Of a stretch of 64,000 nt of DNA, positions 21,421 to 59,214 are shown piece by piece. Every line of letters starts with the position of its first letter. Within the stretch, counting starts at the first letter, position 1. Both the position numbers and the translations under genes were made by a program. The notes under the pieces are model-generated. The model did not search any database. It had not been told where the DNA came from and saw only the letters and a program-made list of their open reading frames with translations. The DNA is from Mobula hypostoma (taxonomy: Eukaryota). The stretch lies in assembly GCF_963921235.1 (NCBI RefSeq), contig NC_086097.1, forward strand, positions 121,150,001 through 121,214,000, given 5' to 3'.

Positions 21421-21578
21421 AAACACAAGTGATTCTGCAGATGCTGGAAACTCAGAACAACACACAATTTGGGCTGAGACTCTTGGTCAGTCAACGATTT
21501 GGGCTTCATCAATTGTCTGTTTATTCCTCTCCAGAGATGTTGCCTGACCTGCTGAGTACCTCCAGTATTTTGTGTTGC
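21421..21578. mobile_element. Short Penelope-derived foldback insertion
   Basis: Inverted terminal tail followed by forward 3' end; degenerate TSD AGTAGAGCTACTTAT / AGTAGATCGACTTAT. Confidence 0.65.
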
Positions 21579-22104
21579 AGTAGATCGACTTATGTTTTTC
21601 AAAGAGATGGCACAGAACAATGGACCACATTTTCTATTATGCGGCATCATATTATGTTGCTAATAATTGCTGCAAAATAGGCTACTTAAAGGGTGGCATA
21701 AGGAATCTGATGTGATTATAAGAACCGATGATAATAAAAGGCCTGATTATGCCATGGGAAAACAAAAGAATGCCTGCACAATGGAATTTAACTCAAGGCC
21801 CATTGGTTCAGCAACTGAGCTTCAGAAGTCTCAATAAAATGTGTTTATCATACAATTTCACATTTTGACAGAACATTTATAACAAGAGCTTAGAGAAACA
21901 CACTTGATATAGACTGTGCAAGTACAAGAAGTGACAGACAGTAATCATTAGCAATAACAGGGTTTCAGTTTACAATCCAAAAGCAGCCTGCGGCCCAATC
22001 AACTGCATTATAATTAGTTAATGAACATTTGAAAGATTATCACATTCAAATGATAACGTGAAGCCTGGAGTCATTACTAAGCTGATCTATTATTTATTAC
22101 CATT

Positions 22105-23705
22105 ACTTGAACAGACCAACTGGCAGACACTCAAGGAGGCTACCACAAATAGAACAGACACAGATCTTGAGGAATATGCCTCATCTGTCAGGAGCAACAT
22201 TAGTAAGTGTGTAGATGACTTTGGTACCTCAAGAATGGGCAGCTCACAACCCAGCCAGAAGCACCGGCTGAATGCAGAGGTGCGCTCCCTAGTAAAGGCC
22301 TGGCACGCAGCCTTCTAGTCCGGTGACAGAACAGCTCTCAGAGCAGCCTGGAGAAGACAGTCTGCACACAAGAAATTCAGGAAAACTTGTCTGATAACCA
22401 TCCCTGGGTATGTGGCTGGGTATCAAGGGCATTACTGACTACACAAGGAAAATCAGCGTCGGCTGAACCAGTGATGCCCCCCTCTCTAATGCTCTACCAA
22501 CTGTTATGCATGCTTCGAGGCACGCAACACAATGCCAGATACAAAAGCCAGCCTCCTCTCCTGTGAGCAGCCACTATCTGTGACAGCAGCAGACGTGACA
22601 GGGACTGTGTAGAATCAACCCCTGTAAGGCAACTGAGCCAAACAACATCCCGGGGGGTGCACAACAGCTCACTGACTTCTTCATGGACATCATCTCCCTC
22701 CCGAACATCCTCAAAATGGGTGTCCTTGCAGCACAGTGTGCTGAGTCCATTTTGTTCACGTATGACTGCATGGCCAAAGACCAGAGCAATCACATTGTCA
22801 AGTTCACTGATGACAGGACAGTGGTCACACTCATCACCAACAATGATGAGACAGCCTACAGAGAGGAGGTGGAAGAGCATGAGGCTTGGTGCCAGGCAAA
22901 TAACCTCTTCCTTAATGTCAACAAGACAAAAGAGATGGTTATCGACTTCAGAAGAACTCACACCATTTACATCCCTCTTTATATTGGTGACACAGCAGTG
23001 AAAACTGTAAGTAGTTTCAAACTCCTGGGAGTACACATCACACACACCCTCTCATGATCCCAGTAGTTAAGAAATCTCACCAACAACTCTACTTTCTGAC
23101 GAGGCTGAAGACAGCCAGACTATGCACATCAATACGCACATCATTCTACAGATGCGCAGTAGCAAGCATTCCAACAAGCTGCATCACTGCATGGTTTGGA
23201 AACTGCACTGTGGCAGACAGGAATACTCTACAACAGGTAGTCAAAATTGCCCAATGCACTACTGGCACCTGCCTACCCACTATCAAGGACATATGTACAG
23301 AAAAGGTGTCGGAAAAGGGCCAGTAACATCATGAAGGACCCCCACATCCAGCTCATGGACTGTTTGTCCCACTCCCATCAGGGCAGAGGCTACGTAGCAT
23401 TGACACCAGGACCACCAGACTCAAAAACAGATACTTTCAACACCTCTACCCACTAACTCTACCCTCTACCACTACTTCTTTTATTTCCCGTCAGGCACTT
23501 TATGTATATCCTAGCCTCACTTTATGGACATACAATCAATCTACGTCTATAAGCTATCTTATGTATTTACATTTATTGCGTTTTTTAAATTATTATTGTG
23601 TTCATTATATTGTGGGTTATTTTGTGGGGTTTTTTGTGCTGTGCCGGATCCGGAGTAACAATTCTTTCATTCTCCTTGCACTTGTAATAATATTGAATTC
23701 TTGAA
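22105..23705 (+). mobile_element. Old, internally deleted Rex1/Babar LINE
   Basis: KFTDD, LNVNKTKEMVIDFR, FKLLG, FYRCAV motifs; T-rich 3'UTR. Confidence 0.85.
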
Positions 23706-23921
23706 TTAACTTGAAAGTTCTTACCATAATATAAAGGGATTTAACTACTAAAATTACACATCATTCTCAGGGCTAAAGCTATCATCATCATCGAGGACAC
23801 TTTCAATGGGTGATGCCTCAATAAGGCGGTATCCATCTTTAAGGACCCTCACCATCCAGGACACGACCCGTTCTCAAAGTTCAAAGTAAAATTTATTATC
23901 ATTGTACAAACATGTCACCAC

Positions 23922-25290
23922 ATGCTAGAGTCAGTTATCAAAGATGTGATAACAGCACATTTGGAAAGCGGTGAAATCACCAGACAAAGTCATCACGGAT
24001 TTATGAAAGGAAAATCATGTCTGACAAATCTCATAGAATTTTTTGAGGATGTAACTAGTAGAGTGGATAGGGGAGAACCAGTGGATGTGGTATATCTGGA
24101 TTTTCAAAAGGCTTTTGACAAGGTCCCACACAGGAGATTAGTGTGCAAACTTAAAGCACACGGTATTGGGGGTATGGTATTGATGTGGATAGAGAATTGG
24201 TTAGCAGACAGGAAGCAAAGAGTGGGAATAAATGGGACCTTTTCAGAATGGCAGGCAGTGACTAGTGGGGTACCGCAAGGCTCAGTGCTGGGACCCCAGT
24301 TGATTACAATATATATCAATGATTTAGACGAGGGAATTAAATGCAGCATCTCCAAGTTTGCGGATGACATGAAGCTGGGCGGCAGTGTTAGCTGTGAGGA
24401 GGACGCTAAGAGAATGCAGGGTGACTTGGATAGGTTAGGTGAGTGGGCAAATTCATGGCAGATGCAATTTAATGCGGATAAATGTGAGGTTATCAACTTT
24501 GGTGGCAAGAACAGGAAAACAGATTATTATCTGAATGGTGGCCGATTAGGAAAAGGAGAGGTGCAACGAGGCCTGGGTGTCATTGTACACCAGTCATTGA
24601 AAGTGGGCATGCAGGTACAGCAGGCGGTGAAAAAGGCAAATGGTACGCTGGCATTCATAGCATGAGGATTCGAGTACAGGAGCAGGGAGGTACTACTGCA
24701 GTTGTACAAGGCCTTGGTGAGACCACACCTGGAGTATTGTGTGCGGCTTTGGTCCCCTAATCTGAGGAAAGACATTCTTGCCATAGTGGGAGTACAAAGA
24801 AGATTCACCAGATTGATTCATGGGATGGCAGGACTTTCATATGAAGAAAGACTGGATGAACTAGGCTTGTACTCATTGGAATTTAGAAGATTGAGGGGGG
24901 ATCTGATTGAAACGTATAAAATCCTAAAGGGATTGGACAGGCTAGATGCAGGAAGATTGTTCCCGATGTTGGGAAGTCCAGAATGAGGGGTCACAGTTTA
25001 AGGATAAAGGAGAAGCCTTTTAGGACCGAGATTAGGAAATACTTCTTCACACAGAGAGTGGTGAATTTGTGGAATTCTCTGCCACAGGAAACAGTTGAGG
25101 CCAGTTCATTGGCTGTATTTAAGAGGGAGTTAGATATGGCCCTTGTGGCTAAAGGGATCAGGGGGTATGGAGGGAAGGCTGGTACAGGGTTCTGAGTTGG
25201 ATGATCAGCCATGATCATACTGAATGGCGGTGCAAGCTCGAAGGGCCGAATGGCCTACTCCCACACCTATTTTCTATGTTTCTATGTTTC
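23922..25290 (+). mobile_element. Young 5'-truncated CR1 LINE (RT and 3'UTR)
   Basis: YLDFQKAFDKV, GVPQGSVLGP, KFADD; (TTTCTATG)n tail; close paralogue at 61181-62736. Confidence 0.95.
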
Positions 25291-26494
25291 ATACAACCCA
25301 GAGATTAGTTTTCTACTGGCATACTTAACAAATCTATAGAACAGTAACTGCAAACAGGATCTATAAACTGTAAACAAACTGCTTACAGATAATAAATAAA
25401 TGGCAATAAATAATGAGCATAAAATGACATGGTAAGACTCGTTAAATAAGTATAGCTTTGTTCAAGAGCCTGATGGTTGAGGGGTAGCGACTGTTCTTGA
25501 ACTTGGTGGTGTGAGTTCTGAGGTTCTTGTATCTTCTATCTGATGGCAGCAGCAAGAAAAGAGTCTGGCCTCGGAGTTGAGCATCTTTGCATCAGGGAGC
25601 AGATGGAGGAACCTGAAGCACACACTCAATACTTTAACAACAGCTTCTTCCCCTCTCTGTCAGATTTTTGAATAGATCATGAAACACTAACTCCATGACA
25701 GACCGTCAGTGATAATCAAAGTAATTGATTTTGCAAAACACTTCAAAACTGTAACTTGACCCTGCACTATGTTGTCCAAATAGAGCCATCAAAAAATTAC
25801 CAAAACTCTAAACAAGAAACAGAAAAGGCTTGAATGGGATAGAAGCACATTATGTGTTGCTTTAAGAACATTCAAAAGCACATGTCAAGAGTTTTGAAAT
25901 ATAGTCATGTGAACACTATGAAGTAAGGACACCAAGGTCCCAAAAATACACAGGATGTATACCCAAATCTATTGGGTAGAACTCTCCTAATCATGAATAC
26001 CCACTTAACCACAAAAACAAAGTATCATTTTTTTTCACAAATGCCTGCAACTGCAATACTCATCAATGTATCAGGCTACCTCATTGTACTCAGCTTCTGG
26101 CTTGGCAGTAATCCTGTTAGTTGAGCTCCAAATGGCTGACCCTCCCTCCCATTCAAAGCGAAGAACGACTTGAGGTTCGGACAATTTGAGCGCCAGGCCA
26201 GAGTGAAATGGTCACGATGTTGGGGTCAGAGGCGAGAGACGGGCCGGTTTGGCTCACTGCGCTGCTGGGTTCACTTGTCTCTGTGCTGGACTGAGGCTAT
26301 GGCCTGAAACTAGTGGACTTCTGGTTGCAGTGATGCCTAGCTTTGTGAACTGTTATCATTTACTTCTATTGTTTGCACGATCTGTGTTTTTGTTCTTTCT
26401 CTGCACACTGGACTTCCTTTGTTTTTAATGGATTCCATTGGGGTTCTCTGGTTCCTGGCTGCCTGTAAGGAGGTGAATCTCAAGGTTGTATACA

Positions 26495-26812
26495 GCGCTG
26501 AAAAAGGAGGAATCTGATTGGAAAGGAGAGTGGATCATGGGAGAAAGGGGAAGAGGAGGTACCCCAGAGGGAGGTGATAGGCAGGTGAGAAGCAGAGAAA
26601 GTTTCAGAGGGGAGCCAGAATATGGAATGGAAAAGGAGAGAAGGGGGAAGGGGGAGCAATTACCACAAGTTGGAGAAATCAATAAGGTTGGAGGCTATCC
26701 AAACGGAAAATGGAGTTGCTCCACCAACCTGAGAGTGGCAGCATCACGGCAGTAGAGGAGGCCATGGACCGACATGATGAAATGGGAATGGGGAGTAGAA
26801 TTAGAATGGCTG
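26495..26812 (-). mobile_element. Old Penelope-like fragment (EN C-terminus and 3'UTR)
   Basis: Similar to ~10300-10620. Confidence 0.7.
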
Positions 26813-27839: not shown

Positions 27840-30094
27840 CTTTGAAATATTAGGTGCTTTTACAACAACTTATAAATTATTTTTTGCCAAATATGTCAGG
27901 AATAATTATATAAAATTGAAATATACTATCATTTTTCTCACCATCTTTTTCCAATGTACTTAAAAACTTGGGATGTGGAAAGAACTGTAGTTCTTGCTTA
28001 CCTATGCCTTCCATAGAAGTAACCATACTAACTAAAGCAGCTGAGAAGTTGTAACACATACAAAAACGCACGTAAGACAGCAGTCATGGAGAGGAATAAG
28101 CAGTTGATGTTTTTTTATGCTGAGACCCTTCATCGTGACCTGAAATGCCTTGGCCCGAAATGTTGACTGTTTATTCCTCTTCATAAATGTTGCCTGACCT
28201 GCTGAGTTCCTTCAGCATTCTGCGTGTGTTTCTCAAGATTACCAGCAACTGGAGAATCTCTTGTGTTTATGAACATTTGTAATGATATGACAATGACAGT
28301 AGTGAAATAAAAACTTACATATGAGTAGCATCTTTCATGGCCTCGGATTTGATGACTCAGGAACCTCTCGGTGGACAGAAACCTCAACACTATAGGACCT
28401 TGCAAGATGAATATTTGTACCATTATGGGCTTGATATTGAATTTCAGTCCACAACTTTTAAATGACTTTCTAGTCTCAACTAGTAACAATAATGCTCCCT
28501 AAAAAGAGAAAAAAATACCAGGCTGCAACATGCTTTGCATTGCCTTTAAAAATTTTTTACTTGTTAGCTAAATGTCCTGTTAGGAGATGTCCAGATGTTG
28601 CCATCCCAATTCTTTTGGTCAAATGATGCAGTATAATCTTGCACAATTATTGTGCCAAAACTGGTTAAAAAAGTTACAATAAATTCATGGTAGAAAAAGA
28701 TAGAGTCCCACAAAGTAGGGATCCTACACATCTGAAGTGAAAGAAATGTTAATCTGGGTAGGATTTGTGGCTGTGGCAATCAATGCACAATAATATTCTC
28801 TGATTAACAAATGAACAATAAGCTCTCCACAATGGAAAAATACAGTGAAGTTGCTGGAATTGACTTTCAACTTAAAGATTCCACATGCACCAGCTTCCCA
28901 TTTTTAGACATGGGATTTTTAAAGAAATACATGGAGATCATTTAGGGATAAATTTACAACAGTTGAATCAACCAATCCCAGAGGAGCTACATTTAGCGTT
29001 AGATTCAAGATTCAATCTATTGTTTGTTTTATCAACCCAGACTGAAAATGGCAGAGGCAAAGTATAGACAGAAAAAAAAATGCAAAGCAATATTAAATTA
29101 GTAGGGATAAGGGACTCATAAAATAATTATCATGATTTCCAGTCTGAATTGCTGTCACCTGATATGCATTGAAGAGGAATAATACTAGTACATTTTCATT
29201 CCCATTATGGCGCAAGTTTGTAAAAGAAACCAACTATACAGCAATAAGTTCATAAATATTGCAATAGCTAATATAGATTACAAATAAAACCTGTACTTCC
29301 ACAATTTAAGCCGTTGAAATTCTGCAGTGCCACTACATGTCCTACATTTTGTGCCCAATTCAATTTTCACAGTAAACAATCTATCATTGATTATCAACCA
29401 CAATATCACTCTTTTAAGCTCAGCACACAGAATATCTCTGTGCTCCCAAGGAAAAACAGATTGCTCTGGATGCCTCTTATCCCTTGCACTTCAATTAAAT
29501 GGCTTAGGCAGCAAAATCAAAGATGCTCCCAGCACTGCAGAAAGCAATTTCTTCCGTTCGGATACACTACTTCTGCCAAGCCAATAATCATGCATGATCA
29601 TCTCCATATGTATAATGCTCCACAATGATCTGAATCAAAGCATATGAAGTGTCGATATGGGAACAGAAACCACAATGAAGTTACTATAATAGTTCACTGG
29701 TACGTTCAGCAGGCAAGGGACAACCGGACTTGGTCAAACAAATTGATCACTGTTTTCTGCTCAGATTGTATGGAATACTTGTATACTTTATTGCAGTCAA
29801 TCAATATACTCCCCACCACACATCTATAGAAGTTTGTCAAAGTTTTAGATGGTATGCCAAATTGTCGCAAACTTCTGAAGAAGACAGCTACATTTGAATA
29901 AGTCCGTTTTAAAACTGTACTAATTACTTTTAGAATTATGTTAACATTACAATATCCTTACAATTGCTGAAGTGGCTAAGGGGAAGACCTGATAACTGTC
30001 TGGCTTCCTTTGCCAATGTAAAGTCTAATATAAGATAAATCTACAGTTGGAGGAAAGGTGAAATATTTTGGTTGGTTAAAGGTACTTAATTCTA

Positions 30095-31435: not shown

Positions 31436-32148
31436 CTTAGTGGCCACTCTATTAGGTACAACTGTACTGCTACTCGTTAATGCAAATAACTAATCAATCA
31501 TGTGGTGGTAATTCAATGCATAAAAGCATGCAAACATGGTCAAGAGATTCAGTCAACACACACAAAAAATGCTGGTGAACACAGCAGGCCAGGCAGCATC
31601 TATAGGAAGAGGTACAGTCAACGTTTCGGGCCAAGACCCTTCGTCAAGAGATTCAGTTATTGTTCAGATCGAACAACAGAATGGGAAAGAAATGTCATCT
31701 AAGTGACTTTGACTGTGGAATGATGGTGCCAGATGGGGAGGTTTAAGCATCTCAGAAACTGCTGATCTCCTGGAATTTTCATGCACAACAGTCTCTAGAG
31801 TTGACAGAAAATGAAGCAGAAAACACAAAAAAATCCAGTGAGCTGCAGTTCTGTGGGTGAAAATGCCTTGTTAACGGGAGAGGTTGGAGGCAAATGGCCA
31901 GACTGGTTCAAGCTGACAGGAAGGTGGCAGTAACTCAAATAACCTTAAGACTATAAGACCATAAAACAAAGGAGTAGAAATCGGCCATTCGGCCCATCGC
32001 GTCTGCTCTGCCATTTTATCATGAGCTGATCCTTGCATTACAACAGTGGTGTGCAAAATAACATCTCTGAATACAGAAAACATTGAAGCTATAGCAGCAG
32101 AAAACTACACTGGGGTGAAAACGGCACCTAATAATGTGGCCACTGATT
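31436..32148 (+). mobile_element. Tc1-type non-autonomous DNA transposon carrying Penelope and CR1-tail insertions
   Basis: TIR AGTGGCCACTCTATTAGGT / ACCTAATAATGTGGCCACT, TA on the left; second copy at 55712-56271. Confidence 0.8.
31554..31643 (-). mobile_element. ~90-bp Penelope 3'-terminal insertion truncated within the hammerhead core
   Basis: TSD CAAGAGATTCAGT at 31541-31553 and 31645-31657. Confidence 0.8.
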
Positions 32149-32679: not shown

Positions 32680-34535
32680 ATTCCTTCACAAATTCCTATA
32701 CTGGTCTGCCAGAATCAACTGCACTCAGCAGCTGCTTCATAAGCAGGGAGCAATATTTAGCCTTCAAAGAGCTAATATGCCATTGTCCAGGGATTGAATT
32801 AATGACGTACAGTTAGGTGGCAGGTAGATACTATACACATTATTCTTTACCAAGAGTTTGGCTTTTGGATGCGCAGAGCAATTATCTAAAATCAGCAGTA
32901 GCTTAAAATTTGTGTCCAGACCATCAGAGTCACAGAGAGCTCTTGCTTCTGGAATAAAGATCATTCCAACGTAAGCAACACACACTAAGTGCTGGAGGAA
33001 CACAGCAGGCCAGGCAACATCTATGGTAAAAATTACAGTCGACGTTTCGGGCTGAAACCCTTCAACAGGACTGAAGAAAAGAAACTGAGTAGATTTGAAA
33101 GGTGGGGGAAGGGGAGAGAGAAACACCTGGCAATAAGTGAAACAGAGGGGGAGGGGTGAAGCAAAGAAGCTGACTGGTGAAAGAGACAGAAGGCCATGGA
33201 AGAAGAAAGAAGGGGGGGGGGACGCACCAGAGGAGGCGATGGGCGGGCAAGGAGATAACATGAGGGAGGGACAGAGGGATGGGAAATAGTGATGGGGGGG
33301 TGGAGGCATTACGGGAAGTTTGAGAAATTGATGTTCATGCTATCTGGTTAGAGGCTACTCAAACGAAATATAAAGTATTGCTCCTCCAACCTAAGTGTGG
33401 CCCTATCCTGACAGTGGTGGAGGCCATGGATGGGCATATTGGAATAGGAATGGGAAATGGAATTAAAATGGGTGGCCACTGGGAGATCCCGCTTGTTCTG
33501 GCAGATGCTCAGCGAAGTGGTCTCCCAAGCTACATCGGGTCTCATCGATGTACAAGAGGCCACACCGGGTGCACCGAACACAATATATGACCCCAGCAGA
33601 CTCACAGGTGAAGTGCTGCCTCACCTGGAAGGACTGTTTGGGGCCATGAATGGTAGTGAGGGAGTCATCTACTGTATTTTTTTCCATACATGCTGCCTGG
33701 CCTGCTGAGTTCCTCCAGCATTTTGTATGTATTGCTTTGGATTTCCAGCACCTGCAGATATCCTCTTGTTTGTCATTCCAATGCAATGTCAGTTGTAATG
33801 CATCCTTTTCTGTTGGCATGATAATTTACTGGAAACTGCTTTGAAAGCTCTGGGATGTCAACTTTTGCTGATGACTAACAACTTACACCTGTGGGTTCCT
33901 GCAGCCCAACACAATGCCACGATCTTTGGATGCTTTATAGCCTGTTGGCAATTCTTCATCCTCGGTAGTCCACATTCGTCTTGGAGTACAGCGCCAATAT
34001 AACGCGGTTTCGTCCGCATTGCAGACTGACTCAGGACCTAAATTTTCATCAGAAACTAACTTAGCAAACCCAGCAGCTGCTTCCTTCTCTGCTGAACATG
34101 TTTCACAACACACTGCACAAAATGTTATGCTATGTCACTGCTTGAAACACTGAAGCCACCCTTCACTGTAGTCACACTCATAATCCAGTCCTAATTCTTC
34201 AGGACAAAATTTTGCTTGCTCATTCACCATTTCTCCTGACAGTTCTACCTTCACTGATGTGGATTTAAACCACTTTATGAGAACTTGATCTAGTTCTGAA
34301 CATCTTCCATCTTTCATCTTTCATTGTTTTCTTTATGGACATCTGTTTTTTTTTGATTTGCTGTCAGCAAAGAACTGAAGCAACTTTTCTTTTTGTTTCT
34401 TTATATCATAAACTGTGGAAGAGCCAATGTTATACAAGTCACATATGATTTTCACAGACACACCACTGTCAAGTTTTTTCAGAACTTCCACCTTATCTTG
34501 TATAAATAACATATGGTATTTGTGCTTCACACCAC
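32680..34535 (-). pseudogene. Degenerate Tigger/pogo (CENP-B/jerky-like) transposase
   Basis: Fragments 34333-34530 (HTH: KVEVLKKLD..IGSSTVYDIKK), 34135-34317 (LDQVLIKWF..SEGWL), 33883-34113 (NADETALYW), ~32764-32965 (LILDNCSAH, LPPNCTSLIQSLD); split by a PLE at 32975-33772. Confidence 0.9.
32975..33772 (-). mobile_element. Penelope-like foldback insertion: long minus arm with GIY-YIG remnant, short plus arm
   Basis: VIYCVRCTRCGLLYIDET; TSD TCATTCCAACGTAA (32961-32974) / TCATTCCAATGCAA (33773-33786). Confidence 0.88.
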
Positions 34536-34940: not shown

Positions 34941-37355
34941 CCCATGAAGCATAGGTCATGAAAATAAATGCAGAATAGCACAGAAGAACAACTTACTTCT
35001 TTTAAAGACCATGCCAATAGCTAACTCTGCTAATGGCACCACCAAAACAGAGGCAACGGATTGGCGCAGTGACATGGGAAATTTGAAATTCGGCTGGTGA
35101 AATTTATGTCCGAACCAGCGGTGGAACCGGATTGCTAGATTCGAGGCAGTCAAAGATGGCTCAACTGCAGGAGAATAATTGAACTAATTACCACACTATA
35201 ACTTAAAACCAACTCTCCCACCAAGTTCAGGCAATTAAGAGATGTGGTAATGAGTTGCAAAGTCACAAACTTACTGGTCAATATATATATGGCATTTGAT
35301 GGCATATAAATATATCTGCCTTTTCCTTCATACAGATAGCCCACAATCACAACTAACACTTAAGATGATCAAACCTGGTAGGAAAATGAAACTGACTGAT
35401 GCAAGTCTCCCAACAGATAACTGAAAGTATTCCAATAAAATTGAACACAATTGCCATCCTGAGGAAGAATGCCTTTTTATCAACAGAAGGTGATAGGGAA
35501 TTTTACCTTCCATATGTTGGATTTGGTAATACCCTGATACCATCAGATGAAGACAAGACAACGAAGGTCCAATATTATACATATCGGGTTGGAAAGGTTA
35601 GAGGCATTCACAGTATCAATCCTGGAATCTCAATTATTAGCAATCTGGTGAATCGTGGATACTGGTAGGTGACCCCACTGAAAAGGAATCACGGACCAGG
35701 CCATGGAAACTCCCCTCCGGATCCCTCAGGAAGATGGCTGAAAAGGTCTGGGAAGGTTTGGGCGCTCACAGTACAGGAGGTGGTGCAGCTGGGAAGGTGG
35801 GTGATTGAGTTGGGAGGATTTATGAAAAGGACAGGATCAGTGATATATTCGGGAGTGCAGAAGACTATTCAGGATTTTTTTTTACACTGAGAGTGATTGA
35901 TATCTGGAACATCCTGCCAGAGGTGGTAGTGAAATTGGATACAATATTTAAGCAGCATTTTATCAGACACTTAAATAGGCAAGGCATAGATGGATACACT
36001 CCTAATGCAGGCAAATGGGTTAGTGTGGATGGGAAAAATGGTAGTCATCAACATGGGACAAAGGGCCTGTTCCTGCACTTTACAACTCTATGGCTGTAAT
36101 GTTAATTAACCCTTCTTGCCAAGGAAGAGGCCAGTTCAATTGTCTCATTACTGCTTCATGGGGATTAAGATTTTTTAAATATTTCCATTGTCATTTTTCA
36201 CTCTTCTTCAAATCAATTTTCATATCTCTTTTTCTCACCAACTTGAAAACTAACTTACCTTGTGCATCCTACCTTCATTTCTCTCTCAGTCTTTAAGACT
36301 TAGCCGATAAGAAAATGCATTAGTGGTGCCAGGTTGCCCCAATATCCCAGTATCCTTGACACCCTCATGGAAATAAAAAGTTTCCACGGCCTCTGGTTAA
36401 CTGAGACCACTTTATTACCAGTGCAATCACATCTTTAATGGAACCAAACTCTTCAACGATTGACTAACACAAAACTGTCAAAAACAAGATAGTATTGATA
36501 CATTATGTTCATTACGTACTAAATATTGAACAAAATACCATGGATGCTTAGAGTAACATATACAAAACGCTGGAGGAACTCAGCAGATCAGGAACTGATG
36601 AAGAGTCTTGGCTCAAAGCATCAGCTCTTTATATCTCTTCAAAGACACCGCCTGAGTTCATCTAGTATTGTGTGTGTGTTACTCTGGAATTCCAGCATCT
36701 CCAGAATCTTTTGTGTGGATGCTTACTTGCTCTTTTATGAAATAATACCATTGAATCTTATGTCCGTTGTATGAGAGGGCTTTTGTTTAATACTTCATTC
36801 AAAAAATGGCACCTTTACATGTGCACAGCCTTGCAACTAGCAACAATATTTGACCAAATACATAAACATACACAATACTCTTGTTCTTTAAGATACCATA
36901 TTCTCCAAATATGCTCACCTCAAAAGCATCAATTGGCCTCAGTTTGGGTCAATTGCTGTCCACAGTCTACATACGTTTGTACTTCAGTAGACTCTTCACC
37001 TTAGGTTTCTTAGCTTAGAGCTGTAACCTTCAGGGTGAGATTTATTTTTCACAAGTCACTATTTACAAAAATTTATTTGGGCAAGACGCAGAGTATCTTA
37101 GAAAGTACTTTGGTGACTGCATAGCTTTGAGTACCATCATTCCAAAGCCAAATGCTGACCAAGAGTCCCAAGTTACAGGAGACACTTTCATGGAAACCAA
37201 GTTCCATATGATCAATGTAAAGACTTCTGGGTGGGCACTATGGTAAGAAACACACCATCAAGCACTAAAGATCATATTCTTACTCTAGAGATGTGTCCCT
37301 TGCATTGTACACGATATTATACCATTAGTTTCAACCAAACATACAGTACATTAAA

Positions 37356-37540
37356 ACAACACACACAAAATGCAGGAGGAACTCAGCAGGCCAGGCAGCA
37401 TCTATGGAAAATAGTAAACAGTCAACGTTTCGGGAAGGTCGACTGTTTACTCTGTTCCATAGATGCTGCCTGGCCTGCTGAGCTCCTCCAGCATTTTGTG
37501 TGTTGCTTGGATTTCTAGCATCTGCAGATTTTCTCCTGCA
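37356..37540. mobile_element. Palindromic Penelope-derived insertion
   Basis: ~37357-37426 pairs with ~37438-37505; TACATTAAA at 37347-37355 and 37551-37559. Confidence 0.8.
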
Positions 37541-37614
37541 GTGATTGGAATACATTAAACCTGCTTTTTGGAAATCTCAATGCAAGCAGCTTGGGCAATA
37601 GAACAACGGTATCC

Positions 37615-38192
37615 AAAGCACAAGAGATTCTGCAAATACCAAAAACTCCAAAGGAACACACACAACATGCTGTATGAATTTAGCAGGTCAGGCAGCATCT
37701 ATGGAGAGGAATACACAATCAATGATTCAGTGTGAGACCCTTCATCAAGACTGTAAGGAAGGGGAAGAAGTCAGAATAAGGTGGTGGAAGAGGAGGGAAG
37801 GAGTACAAGCTGGCAGCTGATAGCTGAGACCAGGTGAGCGAAAGGGGAAATTAAATCAGAAGCTGGGAGGTGATGGGTAGAAAAGATAAAGAGCTGAAGA
37901 AGAAACAATCTTGAATCAAGAGAAGAGTGAACCATGGAAGAAAAGGGAAGGAGGAGGGGTATCAGAGGGGAGCGGTAGGCAGGTTAGGAGAAGAGAAGGG
38001 TGAGAGGGGAGCCAGAATTCAGTTAGCTAGCTTTGGCTGAATAAACATTTGGCCAGAATGGCGAATGGAAAGAAGGGGAAAGGAGAAGAAATTACTGGAA
38101 ATTAGAAAACTCAATGTTCATGCCACCTCTAGCCTCAGGATAGATGCTAATCAGCCAGAATATGAGGTGTTGCTCCTCTAAACTGAGAGTGA
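37615..38192 (-). mobile_element. Old Penelope-like 3' fragment
   Basis: Reverse-complement similarity to ~13390-13900. Confidence 0.75.
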
Positions 38193-38627
38193 CTTGTCCA
38201 AAGTACTTCCAATAATTTGCCAATAGCATTAAGGAAAAGCCAATTTTCCTCCAAATTCAAAAGAAACAGATCCCAATGGAAAAGTTCATCCAGAAATTTC
38301 TGAAAACACACTGTTCTCCACTACACCAGAAAACAAAGTATATTATCATCAATTCTCTGCAAAGGAATTCAGAGGTTGACTATTTCAATCTCAACTCCCT
38401 GCAGAATCTCTAAGACCCTCAATCCTAAATGGTGCATACACTACTCTTTTAGAATCTCGAAAATCATTTTACTCATCACCTAGCGAAAGTCAACAAATAC
38501 AATTTGCATAGTTATTGTTAGGTCTGTACAACTACGTTTTAGGAGAGTTGCAGAAGCCAGTCTTATCATACGCCAAAGTAATATTTAGCCAATCAGCAGG
38601 TCAAGAAACTTGCCATATGTAGATTAG

Positions 38628-41035: not shown

Positions 41036-41461
41036 TTATTAATAAATTAATATATAAAGGCTTGACCACAAGCCAATGCTCTCTTTGGTAAATATGATGC
41101 AAATATTTGAGAGCTGCTGGCTGTCAGAACACATAAAGCACAGTTGGAGCTCATCAAGTACTCAACCCCACAGCAACTTTCCCTCATTGCAAGCTTCTGT
41201 AGTGCTATGAATTCAATAAAAGATTTATTAGTCAGTTCTCAGCACCTCACTTCCTAAAATCCAACAAATTCCACTAAATATTCAGATAATATAAACCCTA
41301 ATCTAAAAATTAGGAGTTTATTACCCCTGTCAGTATCTAAGACATATAAATATATATATATAAATATATATATATATACTGCAGAAGAGTTCTCCGTAGC
41401 ACAGCATATTAGAAAGTTAAAGTTGATGTAGCTGCTATATAACAGTTTCTAGTAGTTAAGT

Positions 41462-41872
41462 GAAACAGATGCTGCAGATGCAGGAAATCCTGAGTAACAC
41501 ACACACTGAATGCTGGAGGAACTTAGCAAATCAGGCAGCATCAATGGAGGGAAATCAACAGTCAATGTCTCTGGTCGAGATCCTTCATTGGGACTGGATA
41601 GAAAAGGGCCAACAAATTCCTTCTTTTCAGCCCTTTGCCTCTTCCTCCTATCACCTCCTAGTTTGTCACATCATTCTCTTTCATCCCTCTTCCCCCACCC
41701 ACCCACCTACCTTCTCCCTCTCACCTACATCGTGCCAGCTTGTGCTCCTCCCTTTGCCTTTTTATTCTGGCTTCTGCCCCTTCATTTCCAGTCCTGATGA
41801 AGGGACGCAGCCCAAAATATCGAGCGTTTATTCCCCATTATGGGTGCTATGTGACTGCTGAGTTCCTTCAGC

Positions 41873-41910
<38 letters not shown>
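41462..41910. mobile_element. Old Penelope foldback insertion ending in an expanded (TG)n microsatellite
   Basis: Minus arm ~41462-41600, plus arm ~41620-41880 with degenerate CTGATGA hammerhead; (TG)n at 41875-41910. Confidence 0.75.
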
Positions 41911-41911
<1 letters not shown>

Positions 41912-42354
41912 TGCAGTAGTTCAGGAAAATTGCATTTAGTTTTCTGCTGCTGTCATTTACTGTCAAATTCAAGGGTTGGTACATGTTAACTGCCTCATGA
42001 CATTTACACCTTTAATGTAAGGGTCCTTTTTTGCAGCAAATTCAAAAGCCCCACGAAAGTCTGGGTCAATGATCTACAGACAGGATGAGGACATTGGTTT
42101 TTTGTAGTCAAGAATCCATTCAGAGAACAGAAACTAAAGAAATATCACATGATCATTGGTTATCTATTTTTTTAAAAATCAGGTTGAGAGAAATATTGAC
42201 AGATTAATCTCTGCTAACATCCTGGGTCCTGATCCTTTCTGGTCTCTTTTCTTGGGAAGGAAAATTTTAGCAGTCATATAACCTTAAATTAAGAGTACTT
42301 TATAGTCAACTAAAGGAAGTCTAAAATAGGAATATTCGACAATTATCAGAGATG

Positions 42355-44851: not shown

Positions 44852-45758
44852 CATTAGATTCCAGTCAATTGGGCCAGCGGCTAGTTGGGACAGCTGCTTA
44901 TTCGGGACAACTCTAACTAATCAAGAAGATTACTGGGATGTATTTGGAACATTATGCCACTTAGTTGGGGCAGGAGACTGTTGCCGAATGTTTTAACGGC
45001 CACACAAGTGCATGCAGACTAACCAGGGTATGTGGCCATTAGAGTGAACAGTTTTTCAAGTGTCAGTTATGTGTGTTTGTATTCAAAAAACAGTGATTTT
45101 TGTCACAGATAGTTGGCAAAAAATAAGCAGTGAGAGAATTCTGAACTTTTTTTACTCTCTGCAATTTCAAGCATTCAGGTTTAGAAGTACCTGAAACAGC
45201 CAGGAGAGAAAATGAAATGACTTCACTACTTCACTAGTTAAGTACTAAGAAATGTGAAGGTACTGACAATCATCTTGAATGTTACAACAAAAATAAAAAT
45301 TTGGAAGATGCAATTGTCAATAGCATTGCATGAAGACAGTCCATTATCTGCACTGATTTTGTTCATTATCTACACTGGATGAATTCCTCTGTTGATAACT
45401 ATTAGGAACTAATATACAGTCTTATAGTAAACCACAAACAAGAAAAAATCTGCAGATACTGGAAATCCCTTCGACTGGTTTCGGCCCGAAACGTCGACTG
45501 CTTTTTTCCATAGATGCTGCCTGGCCTGCTGAGTTCCTCCAGCACTTTGTGTGTGTTGCAGTCTTATAGTACTACTGGTAGTATTTTATTTTTTTTCTGT
45601 ATTTTATTTAAATACATAATTTGTTACTCAGTTAAACGGTAGTTTGTCTTCTTATACATTTTTTATCTACTTCCATGAAACTTTGACAAATGGAGCAGCC
45701 ACTTAATTGGGTCAAAACATACTGTTCCCGAAGTAGCCCAATTAACTATAATCCACGG
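44852..45758 (+). mobile_element. Tigger/pogo-type non-autonomous DNA transposon
   Basis: Imperfect 23-bp TIRs ending AATTGGGC, TA on both sides; partial copies at 27345-27839 and ~58218-58492. Confidence 0.72.
45430..45558 (+). mobile_element. 129-bp Penelope-derived insertion with inverted cap
   Basis: Perfect 13-bp TSD CAGTCTTATAGTA at 45417-45429 and 45559-45571. Confidence 0.85.
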
Positions 45759-47050: not shown

Positions 47051-47099
47051 ATTTCGTCCCTTTTCTCTTTACTGATTCTCTGCCATACTCTCTCAGAAA

Positions 47100-49831: not shown

Positions 49832-50422
49832 CCAAATTTCTACAGATGTACTGTGGAGAGCATTCTAACTGGTTGCATCACCGACTGGTATGGAAGGGCC
49901 AGTACACAGGATCAGAAAAAGCTGCAGAGGATTGTAAGTTTAGCCAGCTCCATCATGGCCATTAGCCACCGCACCATCAAAAGCATCTTCAACAGGCAAT
50001 GCATCAGGATGGAGAAGCAACACCTTATATTCCCTCTGGGTGGCCTCCAACCTGGTGGCATAAATCTCCTTACAATAAAAAAAAATCCTCTCCTTCCCCT
50101 TGTATTCTATTCCCCACTCTGGCCTTTTTACATTTTTTCACCCCCTATCACTTCCTCCTGGGTCCTCTTCTCCTCTGGTCGACTCTCCTCTTCTATCAGA
50201 TTCTTTCTTCTCCAGCCCTTTACCTTCCCCAGCGAACCTAGCTCCACCTTCTAGCTAGCGTCCTTTCCTCTTCCCCCCCCCCCCACAACCTTTTTATTCT
50301 GGTGTTTTCCCCCTTCCTTTTCAGTTCTGATGAAAAGTCTTGACCCAAAATGCCAACTGTTTATTCATTTCCATGGATGCTGCCTGACCTGCTGAGTTCC
50401 TCTAGCATTTTGTGTGTGTTGT
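49832..50422 (+). mobile_element. Rex fragment (to ~50005) abutting an old Penelope 3' fragment
   Basis: FYRCTVESILTGCI followed directly by EKQHLIFPLGGLQPGGIN. Confidence 0.75.
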
Positions 50423-51185: not shown

Positions 51186-52763
51186 TCTTTTAACTGCATG
51201 AATTGGCATCGAGTGGCCACTTTTCACACACAACTAAACCGTCTCAGAAGTTTTTCACATCGCTTTCATGATATTAAAAAAAACACCCTGTGGCTCCAAC
51301 ACTGTCTGCTTTTGTTTACTCTCATGAGAAAAATAAGTGAATGCTTGTAAGCAGCAAGTTCTGAAACCTTTTTTATAAATAGTTTAGAGATCAATCTTTG
51401 CTGTGAGATACGTGTACTCAGTATATTTCTCATAGCTAAAGAGCCACATTGTATTGACTCACACATAGGAACAGAAAGAAAGTTCACAAACACAGTAAGA
51501 TATAGGAGCAGAATTAGGCCATTTTGCCCCAACGAGTCTGCTCCTCCATTCCATCATGGCTGATTTATTATCCCTCTCAGCCCTATTCTCCTGTCTTCTC
51601 CCCGTAACCTTTGATACACTTACTAATCAAGAACCAATCAATCTTTGCTTTAAATATACCCAATCACTTGGCCTCCACAGTTGTCTGTGGTAATGAATTC
51701 CACAGACTCACCAATCTCTGGCTAAAGAAATTCCTTTTCATCTCTGTCCTAAAGGACAAAAGAGATTCTGCAGATGATGGAATTTTTGAGCAGTAATCAC
51801 AAATGTTGGAGGAACTCACCAAGTGAGGCAGCATCTATGGAGGTGAATAAATAGGTGAAATTTCAGTCTGAGACCCTTCATCAGAGGCATTCAAACAAGA
51901 TACTTCCAGTTTATTCAAAGTTTCTTCACCGATTGCCTTTGGAAATTTCTATTCACACTGCTGCAGCCCGGATAGCAGTTGGTTTCCTGACATGATCTTT
52001 AAAGGCGTCACCGCCCTGAAGCGATAGTTATTGTTTGTTACCAATATTACATACACCAGAGGACAGATTGTTACGAAAGAAAGTGCAAAGAAATGACATT
52101 TTGAAAATGAATGAGTCATTTATCCTGATTCTTCTCTCCATGCTGCTAAATCAATGACTTTCTCACGGTTACTTTCATTTCCCCAGGTCCCCAGTCATCG
52201 TGCATTCTATGACACTGGAACCTGACCCTGATCTATCAAAGACCGTGTGGAGGCTACGGATGCATCAGCCTCCCCACGTTAAGCAAAGTCGTGCACAGGC
52301 ATTCTTCATTAAGGGAATCGACCCTGACATTACGGATTAAGTCCAGTGGCGATCAGCAAGTGGAGAAAGCGGCAGGATTGTGAGGTCTGGAACCCTGGAT
52401 CCACAGCCGCCGGAGACCTACCAACAGAGAACCCCTGAGGGGAAACTCATATTCAACTCAAGTGATCACAGGAGTACTATTACTACTATTACTTTCACTT
52501 CTACATTCTCTCATCTTTATTTCAAACTCTTATGTAGAATGTTTTCAAGTAATTTTGGAGAGCTTGTATGTACAACACATTTTGACTCTTCCATTCCTGT
52601 CATATAGAATGGCTGCTGTTCAAAGTCAAAGTAAAATTTATTATCATCATACATGCAGTATATGTTACCATGAACTGCAATGAGATTCAGTTTCTTGCAG
52701 GCATTTATAGGAAAACAAAGAAATGCTAAAGAATTTATGAAAAAAAACTAACATAAGCAAAGA

Positions 52764-53120: not shown

Positions 53121-54054
53121 TGGCTGATCTGTTCATCTGGTGCTGGCAGTTAACTGAGTCTATTGTGTCACTTTATCATTAATAATGTCAAGCCAAATTG
53201 TTTTTGCTGTCTCATTTCCAGGCAATATTCCTTCTCTTTGAGTACTTGTTATATTATCCTTTCTCTATAAATCCAATCCTTCAGATAGTAAGACCATAAG
53301 GCCATGAGACATAGGAGCAGAATTGGGCCATTTGGCCCATCGAACCTGTTCTGCCATCCCATCACGGTTGATTATTATTTGTGTGGGTGGGTGGGAGGTA
53401 GGGAAAGGGCTTATTTTGCTGCTGTTGTATTTTTGCTTTTTATGTTCTGTTTTGTTGTGTCCTGTGTTGTTCTGCTGAGTAATGAGGGCATGCTATGTTG
53501 GTGCTAGGATGTGTGGGCAACACTTGCTGGCTTCCCCCAGCACAATCTTAGGAAAAATAAGCCCTTTCCCTACCTCCCACCCACCCATATACAGTCCTCC
53601 AATTCCAGGACAGGCCTCTTGACTCCAGGCTGCAGTCACCGGGCTTCAAATTCTGGACTCCTGATTGACCGGCTGGCTTCAATCTCCAGTATCAACCCCC
53701 AGACTAGCTGAAGATGGCTCCCTGACTTCCAGTCTCAAACACTAGGCACACCAACTCGCTGGCCGCATGTCTCCGGCTTGCATGGATATTTGACCCCTGG
53801 GCCTACCGACCTGGGACAGCCCAACATTCACAGATGTCCTTTGTCCTTTGTCACTCTCCACGTAGCTGGCACTTGAGCGTGGGGCGGAGGTCTGAACTCA
53901 GCCGTGTCACTTGACTTCAAATGTGGAGCTCAGAGCGGAGCCCTAGATTCTGGCCAGACTACTAACTCCCCAGTCGCCGTCCCTAAATCTTAATCTGACC
54001 ACTAACTCTCTAGCAACTGTCCATCAACCCTAACTTGACTACTAACCCTCTCTA

Positions 54055-54325: not shown

Positions 54326-55526
54326 AAATGAAAACCATCCCTACAAACTTAACGAAACAACTAAATCTGAGCCACAATCTTGACACAGGCCGCAGCTCAC
54401 CTCCATCTGACCAGAAGAAAAGGGCACTTCCCTGTTATACTGTGTAACTGTAACTTGTCCAAGAACTTTTAGGTTTTAAATACTTGTCTTGGTAAGGAAA
54501 TGAAAGTACGAGCTGATATGGTTAGATGAAAGGCAATAGGCTGTTTGTTCACAACCAAAACAAACAATTATGAAATGAACATTGCATAGACCATAAAGGA
54601 AGTAAATTTTTAAGGGGAGATGTATTCAATGTCTAACAGGCTACTGAGAAAGAAATACATTGATTAATAAAGGAGGGAGAAAAGAAACTGATGGAACCTA
54701 AAACATTAAATCATAAACATGAAAAATTCTGCAGATGCTGAAAATCCACAGTAACACACACAAAATGCTGGAGAAACTCAGCAGGTCAGGCAGCATCTGC
54801 GGAGATGAATAAAGAGTCTACATTTCTAGCCAAGACTCTTATTCTGGACTTGAAAGGAAGTGAGAAGATGCCAGGACCATTAACAGTTGAAGCATTAATT
54901 CTGTTTCTCTTTTCACTGCATTATTGACCTGCTGAGGTTTCCCAGTATTGTGTATTTTTCATTATACAAAAGCTGTCACTTTCTTTTGAATGTCTTTGTT
55001 GCAAATGAAGAATCTCCAGCAAAGGCTTCTTATCCTGACAGAGATAAATCTGGAATTCTCTGAAGGTCTGCACAATATTGAGGGTCGACCTTTTACAACA
55101 GAAGTAACGAGAAATGTTTTCACCAGTGAGTAGTGAATCTGTGGAATGCTCTGCCACAGATAGCGGTGGAGGCTAAATCTGTGGCTATATTTAAGGCAGA
55201 AATTGATTGTTTCCTGATCGGTCAGGGCATCAAAGAATATGGCGAGAAAGCAGGTGTATGGGGTTGAGTGGGATCTGAGATCAGACTTGATGGAATGGCA
55301 GAGCAGATTTGATGGGCTGAATGGCCTACTGTTTCTTTGTCTTATTGATCTGATGATATGCTTGTCTTTATTAGTGAAGACATTGAGTTCAAAAGTCAGG
55401 AAGTTATGTTGCAGCTTTATTAAACTTCAGTTAGGCCACATCTGGATTTTTGAATACAGTTCTGGTCGCTCATTATGGAAAGGATGTCGAGGATTTAGAG
55501 AGGGTGCAAAAAAAGTTTACTAGATT

Positions 55527-55608
55527 GGTCTCGGCCTGAAACGTCGACTGCACCTCGTCCTAGAGATGCTGCCTGGCCTGCTGCGTTCACCAGCAACTTT
55601 TATGTGTG
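55527..55608 (+). mobile_element. ~80-bp Penelope 3'-terminal insertion inside a CR1 fragment (~55365-55710)
   Basis: Begins in hammerhead stem II (GGTCTCGGCCTGAAACGTCGACTG); TTACTAG at 55517-55523 and 55609-55615. Confidence 0.8.
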
Positions 55609-55711
55609 TTACTAGGATGCTTCCTGGATTAGAGGGCATGTACAAGCTGAACAGACTTGGGTTATTTCCTCTGAGGCAGTGGAGGCTGAGGGGAGATCTA
55701 ACAGAGGTTTA

Positions 55712-56271: not shown

Positions 56272-56525
56272 TATGTTGTCAGCAGTTACAGCACATTCAA
56301 CTTCCAGTAGTGAATGACATCAAATCTCCTCCAATTAAACTTACACCTCTTCATCAGAGAAAGGAATGTCATGATTTCAGCCTTGTCTTTTTATTCTCTG
56401 TCTCGTTTGTGTCAGTGTGGCACTGGTGTAATAATGTATACAATTTGAAGATTTTTAAAGATAAAGGTTAGCTTTATTTGTCACATATACATCAAAACAT
56501 CAAACATACAAAGAAATATGTTGTT

Positions 56526-57180
56526 CGGAGGGAGGAGAAGATGGCGGTGTGACGCAGCACGCGCGGCCGTTCCGAATGAATATAGATTATGTGTAACTAG
56601 GGGCCGTGCACAATCCGGATTTGATGGAGACAGCCGTGAGATGCGTAGAGGAACATCTGGAGTAACTTCTGAAATGCCTGCTTCACTGCCGCTGCTACTG
56701 TGCAATCGAGAATCTCCTGAGACAAAGGCCCCAAATCCTCGGCTTTGCGTATCGCCTGTTGCTGGGGCTGGGGTCAAAGCGCTCGGCAGAGATGGTGCTC
56801 GGTGCTCGGTGTCGAATAGGTGGTCGGAGGCTAGGAGTTTTTCGGATGGACTCGGAGTCGGACTGTGGTCGGATGCTTCCAGGATGCTGCACCGCAAGTT
56901 GGTCGTGCTGGAGGTTTACCGTCTGCGTGAGATGATGGGACTTTCGAGAGACTTTGAGACTTTTACTGTGCCATGGTCTGTTCTTATCAAATTACGGTAT
57001 TGCTTTGCACTGTTGTAACTATATGTTATAATTATGTGGTTTTTGTTACTTTTTTAAGTCGGATTATCCTGTGTTTTCGTGATATCATTCTGGAAAAACA
57101 TTTTATAATTTCTTAATGCATGCATTACTAAATGACAATAGAAGGGGACTGTGTATCCTCATAATCATAATAATAATAAC
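56526..57180 (+). mobile_element. CpG-rich non-autonomous retroposon inserted in a minus-strand SINE tail
   Basis: Starts GGAGGGAGGAGAAGATGGCGG; T-rich 3' part; (ATAATC)/(TAA)n tail; SINE sequence resumes at ~57200-57440. Confidence 0.55.
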
Positions 57181-59050
57181 AGTGCCAATAACTAACACAT
57201 TCCAAAGGCGGCCCACAAGTGCTACCACACACCCAGTGCCAACCTTGCATACCCACAGCTCACTAACCCTAACTATAAGTCCTTTTGGAATATGGGAGCG
57301 AACTGGAGCATCCAGTGGAACCCCACACGGTCATGGGGAGAACGTGAAGACTCCTTACAGATGGTGGCAGGAATCAAAACCGGATTGGTAAGTGCTGTTG
57401 CTGGTACTGTAAAGTGTTATACCAACCACTACTCCACCAAAACTGAAAGTGTACAGTTGATGGCTGCTCTCCTTCTAGTCAGGTGCTTTAGAGACTTATA
57501 GTGTGTCTCTTCTTCCTGCTGTCATTGCGAAGGAGGTACGGGAGCCTTACGTCCTTCCCCACAAGGATAAGGAACAGTTACTGCCTATCAACCATCAGGC
57601 TCCTGAACTAGTGTGAGTAAACTAAACTCTGAACTGATACCCCAACCCATGGACAATATAACTCATATTCTCAGTATTATTTATCTGTGCATGTACAGTT
57701 TTTATTTGCTTACGATTTATTTGTTCGTTTGTTTAAATTTTTGCAGCTTCTCTTCTTCAGCACATTGATTGTCAGTCTTTGTGTGTAGTTTTTCATTGAC
57801 TCTTTTGTATTTCTTTGTTCTACTGTGAATGCCTGCAAGAAAATAAATCTCAAGGCGCTATATGGTGAAATGTCTGTACTTTAATAATAAATTTACTTTG
57901 AACTTTGAATTTTACATTAAGGTTCATTCTTCAGGATGTTTATTTGCTTTATTCAAGACTGTGCTTCTCTGAAAACCTAGCCCTGTTATTGATCAACTGA
58001 AAGTATTCTGCTAAATTGCCACAGCTAATCTTTCCCTGTTACATAATTTGCTATGGTAATAGGAAGCAATATTCCTTGTTTACCATATGCACTGTGCACC
58101 CCATTTGCCCTAATTTCTGTAAAACTTCAGAATCAGAATCAGAGTCAAGTTTAATATAATTTGCATATGTTGTGAAATTTGTTGTTTATGGCAGCAAAAC
58201 ATAAAATACAATAATAAGTATGGATCCTGGATAATTGGGCCATTGGTTACTCGGGCATCAGTTTATTTGGGACAACTCTTAAAGAACAAAAATTAATTGT
58301 GAAAATTGCCAGGATTCCCTTTGTTTATTTGGGACACTATGCCACTTAATTGGGACAGAAAACTGTTGCCAAACAGTTTCTAAGTAGTGTCATATGCGCG
58401 CATTTGTGTGGTCATTAGACACTACGGCCTGCTTAGAGCGAACATTTTCTAAATAGCATCAGTTACTGTGTTTGTGTTCAAAACGCAGTGATCAAGGACC
58501 ATCAGCCTCCGACAACAATCGTGCTAAGCTCCGAGTTGAAGTTGATGAACAACATTCTGGCGTATGAGGCATCATTTTCTAGGTGGTTCAGGATGGATTG
58601 GAGGGGCCAGGTCTATGGCATCATCAGTGGACTGGTTTGAGTGGTAGATAAACTGGAACAGGACCAATGTAGCTGGAAGATGGCATTTTATGATCCATGA
58701 CCAACTGCTCAAAGCACTTCATGATTGTCGAGGTCAGTGCCACTGGGCAGTAATCGTATAGGCCAGTTACCATCACTCTCACTGGAATACAGGGCTACCT
58801 AGAAGCCTGCAGGCACTGTGAACTGTTTCAGAGAGATATGCAAGTTATCTGTTAAGACTTTGAAAGCTGGGCTGCACAGTCCTTCAGTACCTGATGAGGT
58901 ATGTTGTCCAACCCTGTGGCTTTGCTTGGGTTTACTCTGGCTTGGTTGGGCTACATTCCTCAAAACCAGTTACATTCAATAAAACCAGTTATTATATCTT
59001 GAACCATCTAACTCCTGAACCAGTGGATAACTTCACTCACCTCAACTCTG

Positions 59051-59214
59051 TACAGTCGACATTTCGGGCTGAGACCCTTCGTCCTGACGAAGGGTCTCGG
59101 CCCGAAACGTCGACTGTACCTCTTCCTAGAGATGCTACCTGGCCTGCTGCATTCACCAGCAACTTTGATGTGTGTTGCTTGAATTTCTAGCATCTGCAGA
59201 ATTCCTCGTGTTTA
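59051..59214 (+). mobile_element. 164-bp hammerhead foldback mini-element
   Basis: 59051-59083 is the reverse complement (2 mismatches) of 59086-59118; perfect TSD CACCTCAACTCTG at 59038-59050 and 59215-59227. Confidence 0.9.
59081..59116 (+). ncRNA. Minimal type I hammerhead core
   Basis: GTC CTGACGA AGGGTCTCGGCCC GAAAC GTC GACTG. Confidence 0.8.

Follow-up and report, generated by a model that had tools for sequence, protein, structure and literature searches.

Head-to-head pairs of a Penelope-like retrotransposon in Mobula hypostoma, with priming from both target nicks as their probable origin

Inverted pairs in Penelope-like elements and related systems

Penelope-like elements (PLEs) that encode an endonuclease typically lie next to an inverted, 5′-truncated copy and carry a tail of 30–40 bp on one side only (PMC3846280; PMC8557442; these two, like PMC4209133, PMC2912911, PMC12350158 and bioRxiv 10.64898/2026.07.22.740005 below, are cited throughout for the available parts of their texts). 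The inverted-pair structure itself is already known for PLEs, and the route to it is called undefined in PMC8557442; what is available of PMC3846280 and PMC8557442 prefers self-priming or endonuclease resolution and gives no pair counts. Here we analyze a window of 64,000 nucleotides from Mobula hypostoma (contig NC_086097.1, positions 121,150,001 to 121,214,000; repeat-rich vertebrate DNA, 43% GC), in which most insertions of a PLE are such pairs. We argue that both nicks at the target probably prime reverse transcription, one at each of two template sites, and that the cDNAs, cut short, are then linked head to head. To the published structure we add a count for a putative Neptune-type element with inversion in the majority of insertions, a strict coupling of tailed and tail-less arms, primer homology of 0–2 nt, and inner ends that fall in the ribozyme motif.

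The Poseidon PLE protein of the anole (Anolis carolinensis) cleaves and extends both target strands in vitro and is predicted to dimerize; without target homology, it begins reverse transcription at two internal sites of the RNA, between which the tail lies (PMC11167929). The words ‘inversion’ and ‘head-to-head’ do not occur in the main text of that paper, and we found no paper linking the two PLE start sites to inversions in a search that left older subscription papers and supplements outside. In L1 twin priming, the second nick likewise primes internally, leaving an inverted 5′ part, one target-site duplication (TSD) and an inner junction with short homology (PMC2912911; PMC12350158). The second sites of L1 are variable and are found through microhomology, of which ~70% of cases have 2–5 bp and 28 of 605 have none (PMC2912911; PMC12350158), and 30.9% of recent copies are inverted (PMC2912911). 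The window pairs resemble published PLEs (PMC3846280; PMC8557442) in their head-to-head arms, one TSD (~8–10 bp in the published elements), one-ended tail, palindromic junctions and heavy 5′ truncation, and differ in being mostly stubs of 130–800 bp that lack an open reading frame (ORF) and in outnumbering unpaired insertions.

Paired arms, single target-site duplications and two end sites

A profile of the PLE 3′ end gave 38 matches at E≤10, from which we retained the 29 with E<0.6 and discarded nine with E>1; arm ends were set by hand from the alignments, to about ±3 nt, and pair sizes are spans from TSD to TSD. Twenty-four of the 29 arms sit in 12 head-to-head pairs and five are solo copies, so that pairs make up 12 of 17 insertions (71%). 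When 29 arms were placed at random, adjacent head-to-head pairs numbered 0.22 on average and never more than five in 200,000 trials; because the observed adjacency far exceeds this, we take the pairing to be a real feature. Retained matches less than 1 kb apart were head-to-head in 11 cases, tail-to-tail in two and on the same strand in one (at 561 bp). An earlier, sequence-only reading of the window had named nine sites as foldback mini-insertions of 80–800 bp. All nine are confirmed, each with two arms of the PLE 3′ end, the first on the minus strand and the second on the plus strand, with one start moved ~23 bp to the left (from 28078 to 28055), and the true spans are 129–798 bp, none being as small as 80. 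Three pairs lie beyond the nine: a near-full-length one at 10080–13900, one at 2320–3327 that a later terminal inverted repeat (TIR) element has split, and a weak one at 54714–54954. The remark in the same reading that either side can be the long arm carries no evidence, as it is arbitrary which way round an insertion lies in the genome.

A single direct repeat of 7–15 bp encloses the whole pair. Tested against mismatched-flank and random nulls, 9 of 11 pairs reached p≤0.03 on both (9 of 12 counting 2320). Separate TSDs for the two arms had been put forward as grounds for doubting a common origin; instead we found one per pair, and eight of the nine named pairs stand above both nulls. The arms of a pair are also kin. 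At least three PLE subfamilies contribute to the pairs, and in the eight overlapping pairs the similarity of partner arms is 0.79, compared with 0.70 for re-paired arms (p=0.0003); the six older pairs alone gave a permutation p of 0.017. Arms within pairs differ by 2–40%. Those of the young insertion at 10080–13900 have 17 mismatches over 793 aligned positions and carry the same allele at all five checked sites that vary among copies in sequencing runs.

Outer ends concentrate at two places. In the coordinates of the reference copy (Table 1), 14 of the 29 lie at 13895–13904, which we call the distal site, and 13 at 13860–13868, the proximal site; the remaining two are at 13843 and 13807. These two sites account for 27 of 29 ends, and solo copies use both (three proximal, two distal). 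The ~35 nt between them correspond to the tail known from published PLEs. Random arm ends, also suggested beforehand as an observation that would speak against ordered priming, are not what we see, as 13 of the 15 non-distal ends fall inside one 9-nt window (p<1e-7, allowing for window position). Exactly one arm is tailed in each of the 12 pairs (p=2.4e-4 under a free 50:50 choice per arm), and the tail-less arm finishes at the TGTGTGTTG(C) site in 10 of them; the staggering of arms that the sequence-only reading described therefore holds.

Target and template share 0–2 nt at the short-arm end (mean 1.0, n=10 pairs), with p=0.016 against a one-sided null and p=0.24 allowing for boundary ambiguity, so that the target microhomology proposed for checking is at most weak. 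Primers finishing in A number 12 of 20 (p=0.004), a count we set aside because boundary assignment favours A. The pairs depart from L1 (PMC2912911; PMC12350158) in that 10 of 12 have a fixed second site, homology is lower, wide arm overlaps are common and inversion is far more frequent; we did not find L1-type variable-site priming by 2–5 nt of microhomology among the window pairs.

At the inner side, six of the 12 pairs have in each arm sequence that is missing from the other, and therefore neither arm is a simple copy of its partner; in the remaining six the short arm is contained in the long arm. Four pairs abut within ~12 nt and eight overlap by 34–797 nt. The term foldback suits some pairs, but not 2320, 15187 and 45430, where the arms do not overlap, or 21421, where they share only ~10 nt. 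The tailed arm extends little beyond the tail, stopping within ~10 nt of the proximal site, in four of the 12 (1.5 expected, p=0.058). At the junctions the arms overlap by 0–3 nt or are linked by short templated fillers; neither a spacer nor a second TSD was found there. A snap-back origin of the 32975 junction was checked and is not supported.

Fourteen of the 29 inner ends fall within a 38-nt hammerhead motif, where a smooth length distribution would lead one to expect 3.9 (any-window p=0.00065), a statistic in which hairpin arms are not independent and for which the profile was seeded on the hammerhead region. None of the 29 is at the predicted cut site, and so the template does not appear to be self-cleaved RNA; anole Poseidon does not need hammerhead cleavage in vitro (PMC11167929). 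Seven inner ends lie at 13769–13774, which could reflect stalling at structure, annealing at a GTC-nn-GAC dyad, or run-off from RNA that starts there. Pairs 28055 and 59051, which belong to different subfamilies, have a common apex at this hammerhead dyad.

Routes to an inverted pair

We favour as probable a route in which each pair would be one integration event of a Neptune-type PLE. The complex of reverse transcriptase (RT) and endonuclease would cut staggered nicks 7–15 bp apart, and the two 3′-OH ends would each prime reverse transcription on element RNA; the start would be the distal site for one of them and the proximal site ~35 nt upstream for the other, and base pairing would be slight or absent. 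The two cDNAs would mostly end early, often in the hammerhead region. Their 3′ ends would then be linked head to head, either by short templated fillers or by 0–3 nt of homology, with fill-in yielding the one TSD. Both outer edges of a pair are element 3′ ends, which is where the primers of target-primed reverse transcription attach, and this counts for dual priming. The chemistry may be shared with Poseidon, which likewise has two start sites at the limits of its tail, no target homology and no requirement for cleavage by its hammerhead (PMC11167929). The likeness has bounds, in that the window element has the CX2-5CxxC linker of Neptune/Nematis, and the Poseidon start sites are by description an AC-rich stem loop whereas those in the window are GT-rich on the sense strand.

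Several observations weigh against this route. Half of the pairs (6 of 12) are compatible with fold-back copying, and two short arms (10081, 59051) have off-site ends and lie wholly within the long arm, as fold-back predicts. The proximal site is absent among the loose ends listed from sequencing-run contigs, so that the window is its sole source. No TSD was found for 54714, that of 2320 is not significant and that of 28055 is marginal (p=0.09), and in the six older pairs the partner is mostly not the nearest neighbour (ranks 1–22). To explain overlaps of 34–797 nt in eight pairs, one has to invoke a second RNA, strand displacement or successive rounds of copying. The in vitro data come from a different clade, and our sample is 12 pairs with hand-set ends. 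The sequence-only reading had both nicks priming at two preferred positions; this is still the best-supported account, with the pairs that fit fold-back and the two off-site ends as its exceptions.

Fold-back self-priming strikes us as unlikely. Here a single nick-primed cDNA (or a self-priming antisense template) would fold over on itself at a short dyad, and copying from there would produce the inverted arm. The endonuclease or the polymerase stop would define the tail-less end, and later central deletions would produce the asymmetric pairs. Palindromes at inverted junctions were interpreted as self-priming in PMC3846280, and the tail was ascribed to endonuclease resolution in PMC8557442. 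Fold-back gains from the apex at one dyad in 28055 and 59051 despite their different subfamilies, from the six nested short arms, of which two end off-site, and from the junction piece at 10880–10902, which could be a snap-back. Yet it requires an extra deletion each time for the six pairs with mutually exclusive content, and it sits poorly with the four tailed arms that stop close to the proximal site and with proximal-site ends in solo copies that have no hairpin. Moreover, DNA folding prediction for the 59051 apex gave no fold-back of the cDNA end. Dual priming and fold-back may both operate.

The remaining explanations are far less probable. The separate mini-element family of the sequence-only reading, a non-autonomous foldback unit that is copied as such in the manner of a retrozyme or of a miniature inverted-repeat transposable element (MITE), is largely refuted here and looks very improbable: short copies are numerous, 28055 and 59051 share an apex and the hairpins fold stably as DNA (−29 to −75 kcal/mol), but breakpoints differ so that no two pairs share both, the subfamilies number at least three, TSD length varies over 7–15 bp, and the 3.8-kb ORF-bearing copy has the identical layout. 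Termini, internal structure and TSD length common to copies, as in MITEs, were not found among the window pairs. Non-LTR retrozymes resemble the stubs in having PLE-derived terminal sequence with a hammerhead, whereas they form head-to-tail tandem arrays (bioRxiv 10.64898/2026.07.22.740005), of which there are none among the 29 window arms. We give scarcely any credence to the idea that each site received two insertions independently, the later one landing within or next to the earlier. The density of copies (29 arms in 64 kb), the mention in PMC11167929 of a PLE nicking its own pseudo-long terminal repeat (pLTR), and an opposite-strand 13423/13901 joint in all four sequencing runs, maybe a nested insertion, speak for it; set against these are the single TSD that spans both arms, junctions with neither spacer nor second TSD, adjacency far beyond chance, the common arm subfamily and the strict one-tail rule. 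Rearrangement after insertion, gene conversion or an assembly artefact appears just as remote: inverted repeats are unstable and difficult to assemble (PMC8557442), but the arms differ in sequence, have filler at their junctions and end at two fixed sites, and the TSDs are intact.

Within dual priming, it is possible, though short of probable, that twin priming is programmed, with a dimeric PLE complex on a single RNA holding its RT sites at both ends of the 35-nt tail and each nick having its own start. Inversion would then be the default product and the tail the footprint of dimer spacing; tail-only arms would be collisions with the second primer, overlapping arms would arise through strand displacement, and cDNAs would run off or stall at the hammerhead. 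A family with pairs in the majority and a strict one-tail rule leads to a simple prediction at the level of molecules. If the two primings are indeed coupled, PLEs, the sister group of telomerase, would have a second route of twin priming, one governed by sites in the RNA instead of homology to the target.

The source element, its hammerhead and other features of the window

The PLE has RT followed by a GIY-YIG endonuclease at the C terminus within a single ORF, in which the YIDD, GVIY and YIG motifs are present; Pfam matches to RVT_1 (E=3e-4) and GIY-YIG (E=1e-3) are both below the curated cut-offs. Two cysteines between GIY and YIG (GVIYCVRCSRC-GLL-YIG) and histidines downstream form a CCHH motif, and the linker between RT and endonuclease, at residue 442, is CKRNKCYTC. 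The CCHH motif and the CX2-5CxxC linker are used to define endonuclease-bearing PLEs and the Neptune/Nematis clade, the linker being absent in Penelope/Poseidon (PMC8557442). Judged by these motifs, the source is an endonuclease-bearing PLE of Neptune/Nematis type and not of Penelope/Poseidon type. A protein search returned 1089 homologues, with rays and sharks closest; the nearest named relatives are in Mobula (86–93% identity) and Hypanus (76–87%), and sharks come next. Upstream of the open frame the coding region is interrupted by stops and frameshifts. No direct (tandem) pLTR was found upstream of the ORF at the 10080–13900 copy, which has only the inverted arm there, as expected since this copy is 5′-truncated.

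Contigs of four sequencing runs show that the family is very abundant. Cover in run X1 climbs ~80-fold toward the 3′ end, and among the loose ends listed there are some behind reference 13901/13902 in runs X1, X5 and X9. By hand scaling, the last depth bin puts 41–51% of copies as reaching the distal end, a figure that we do not use as evidence as depth is not copy number. The 13423/13901 joint, in reference coordinates, is among the 15 listed of ~4,050 joints and occurs under three organism labels; it may stem from an amplified derivative whose endonuclease region has taken up a tail-end insertion, or from a nested insertion. A pattern scan of metagenome and genome contigs gave 40 further loci (0, 32 and 8), which beyond the 20-nt pattern match the profile or window little (longest BLAST match 34 nt); we treat them as chance because no extended match was found.

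A descriptor scan for the minimal hammerhead gave two matches in the window and none in 200 shuffles, while an Rfam scan recognised no hammerhead family there. The motif resembles metazoan PLE hammerheads in its short helix I, the lack of a helix III stem and a palindromic 15.2–16.2 pair, and differs in its helix II of 3–5 bp and in that most window copies are decayed or cut through the motif (PMC4209133); in Schistosoma, dual hammerhead motifs lie ~100–700 bp apart on opposite strands (PMC4209133). Folding prediction of a hammerhead dimer yielded no active conformation, a method that says nothing either way. Within 13818–13889 there is a conserved predicted helix between AGATGCTG (13818–13826) and CAGCATCT in the tail, present in all subfamilies and 87.5% paired, with no covariation above shuffles. 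The tail also contains an 8-nt palindrome, and at 41885–41912 the proximal end motif has given rise to a (GT)n microsatellite. Two sub-threshold Rfam microRNA (miRNA) matches are PLE hairpins; the stubs may scatter hairpins that resemble miRNA precursors, on these weak matches, or MITEs across the genome.

Table 1. Coordinates of the PLE features, pairs and solo copies in the window
Feature	Position	Strand	Remarks
Near-full-length PLE arm	10903..13900	+	reaches distal tail; coordinate reference
Stop-to-stop open frame	11749..13479	+	RT (YIDD), CX4CX2C linker, GIY-YIG endonuclease
Left TSD copy of near-full-length insertion	10067..10079		13 bp; right copy 13901-13913; 13/13 identical, p≤0.009 against both nulls
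Inverted short arm of the same insertion	10081..10881	-	reference 13843 to 13047; tail-less; outer end off-site
Junction piece, 23 nt	10880..10902	-	reverse complement of 10984-11006 (template jump or snap-back)
Minimal hammerhead motif	13767..13804	+	5-bp helix I, CTGACGA, helix II, GAAA; predicted cut after 13799
Second hammerhead copy	10120-10157	-	palindromic CG retained
Proximal end site	13860..13868	+	TGTGTGTTGC; outer end of 13/29 arms
Tail, ~35 nt	13869..13901	+	finishes at distal end site; 14/29 arm ends at 13895-13904
Pair	2320..3327		minus arm long, ending at proximal site (2320-2627 and 3147-3299); plus arm of 28 nt, tail only (3300-3327); no significant TSD
Pair, 654 bp	15187..15840		28-nt tail-only arm (minus), 626-nt arm (plus) finishing near proximal site; TSD 13 bp (11/13)
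Pair, 158 bp	21421..21578		45-nt tail arm (minus), inverted-hammerhead filler, proximal-site arm (plus); TSD 15 bp (13/15)
Pair, 215 bp	28055..28269		hairpin, apex in hammerhead core; proximal arm minus, tailed arm plus; TSD marginal (10/13)
Pair, 798 bp	32975..33772		~690-bp proximal arm (minus), 107-nt tailed arm (plus); TSD 14 bp (12/14)
Pair, 165 bp	36551..36715		43-nt proximal arm (minus), tailed arm (plus); TSD 10/10
Pair, 195 bp	37356..37550		hairpin, 69-nt arms 91% complementary; ~12 unexplained bases precede right TSD; TSD 9/9
Pair, 457 bp	41458..41914		tailed arm (minus), ~300-bp proximal arm (plus), end expanded to (GT)n; TSD 7/7
Pair, 129 bp	45430..45558		35-nt tail-only arm (minus), short filler, proximal arm (plus), no arm overlap; TSD 13/13
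Probable pair	54714..54954		tailed arm (minus), decayed proximal arm (plus); TSD not found
Pair, 164 bp	59051..59214		hairpin, apex in hammerhead core; 34-nt short arm with off-site end (13807); TSD 13/13
Solo copy	31556..31643	-	proximal end; inner end in hammerhead core; TSD at least 12 bp
Solo copy	37619..38196	-	distal end; TSD 7 bp
Solo copy	50004..50421	+	proximal end; TSD not found
Solo copy	51754..51882	-	distal end; TSD not found
Solo copy	55524..55608	+	proximal end; TSD 7 bp

Other PLE sequence and other repeats share the window. At 37356–38196 two PLE insertions of different subfamilies stand tail to tail, 68 bp apart, and a minus-strand PLE fragment at 26490–26821 comprises the endonuclease end and part of the 3′ untranslated region, without hammerhead or tail. 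The solo stub at 31556–31643 is enclosed by 24-nt inverted repeats at 31434–32149, which we take to mark a Tc1/mariner-like element. Inside the PLE arm of the 2320 pair lies the TIR element (2631–3143), with a TAA repeat on both sides and presumably PIF/Harbinger-like. A perfect 34-nt inverted repeat at 53384–53587 flanks 136 bp of unrelated repeat sequence and is not PLE-derived. Two related copies of a long interspersed nuclear element with RT, at 23874–25290 and 61365–62733 (the second with Pfam RVT_1 at E=5.7e-31), we assume to be CR1-like. Finally, a GC-rich stretch at 45985–47100 with long open frames on both strands is probably a CpG island or promoter.

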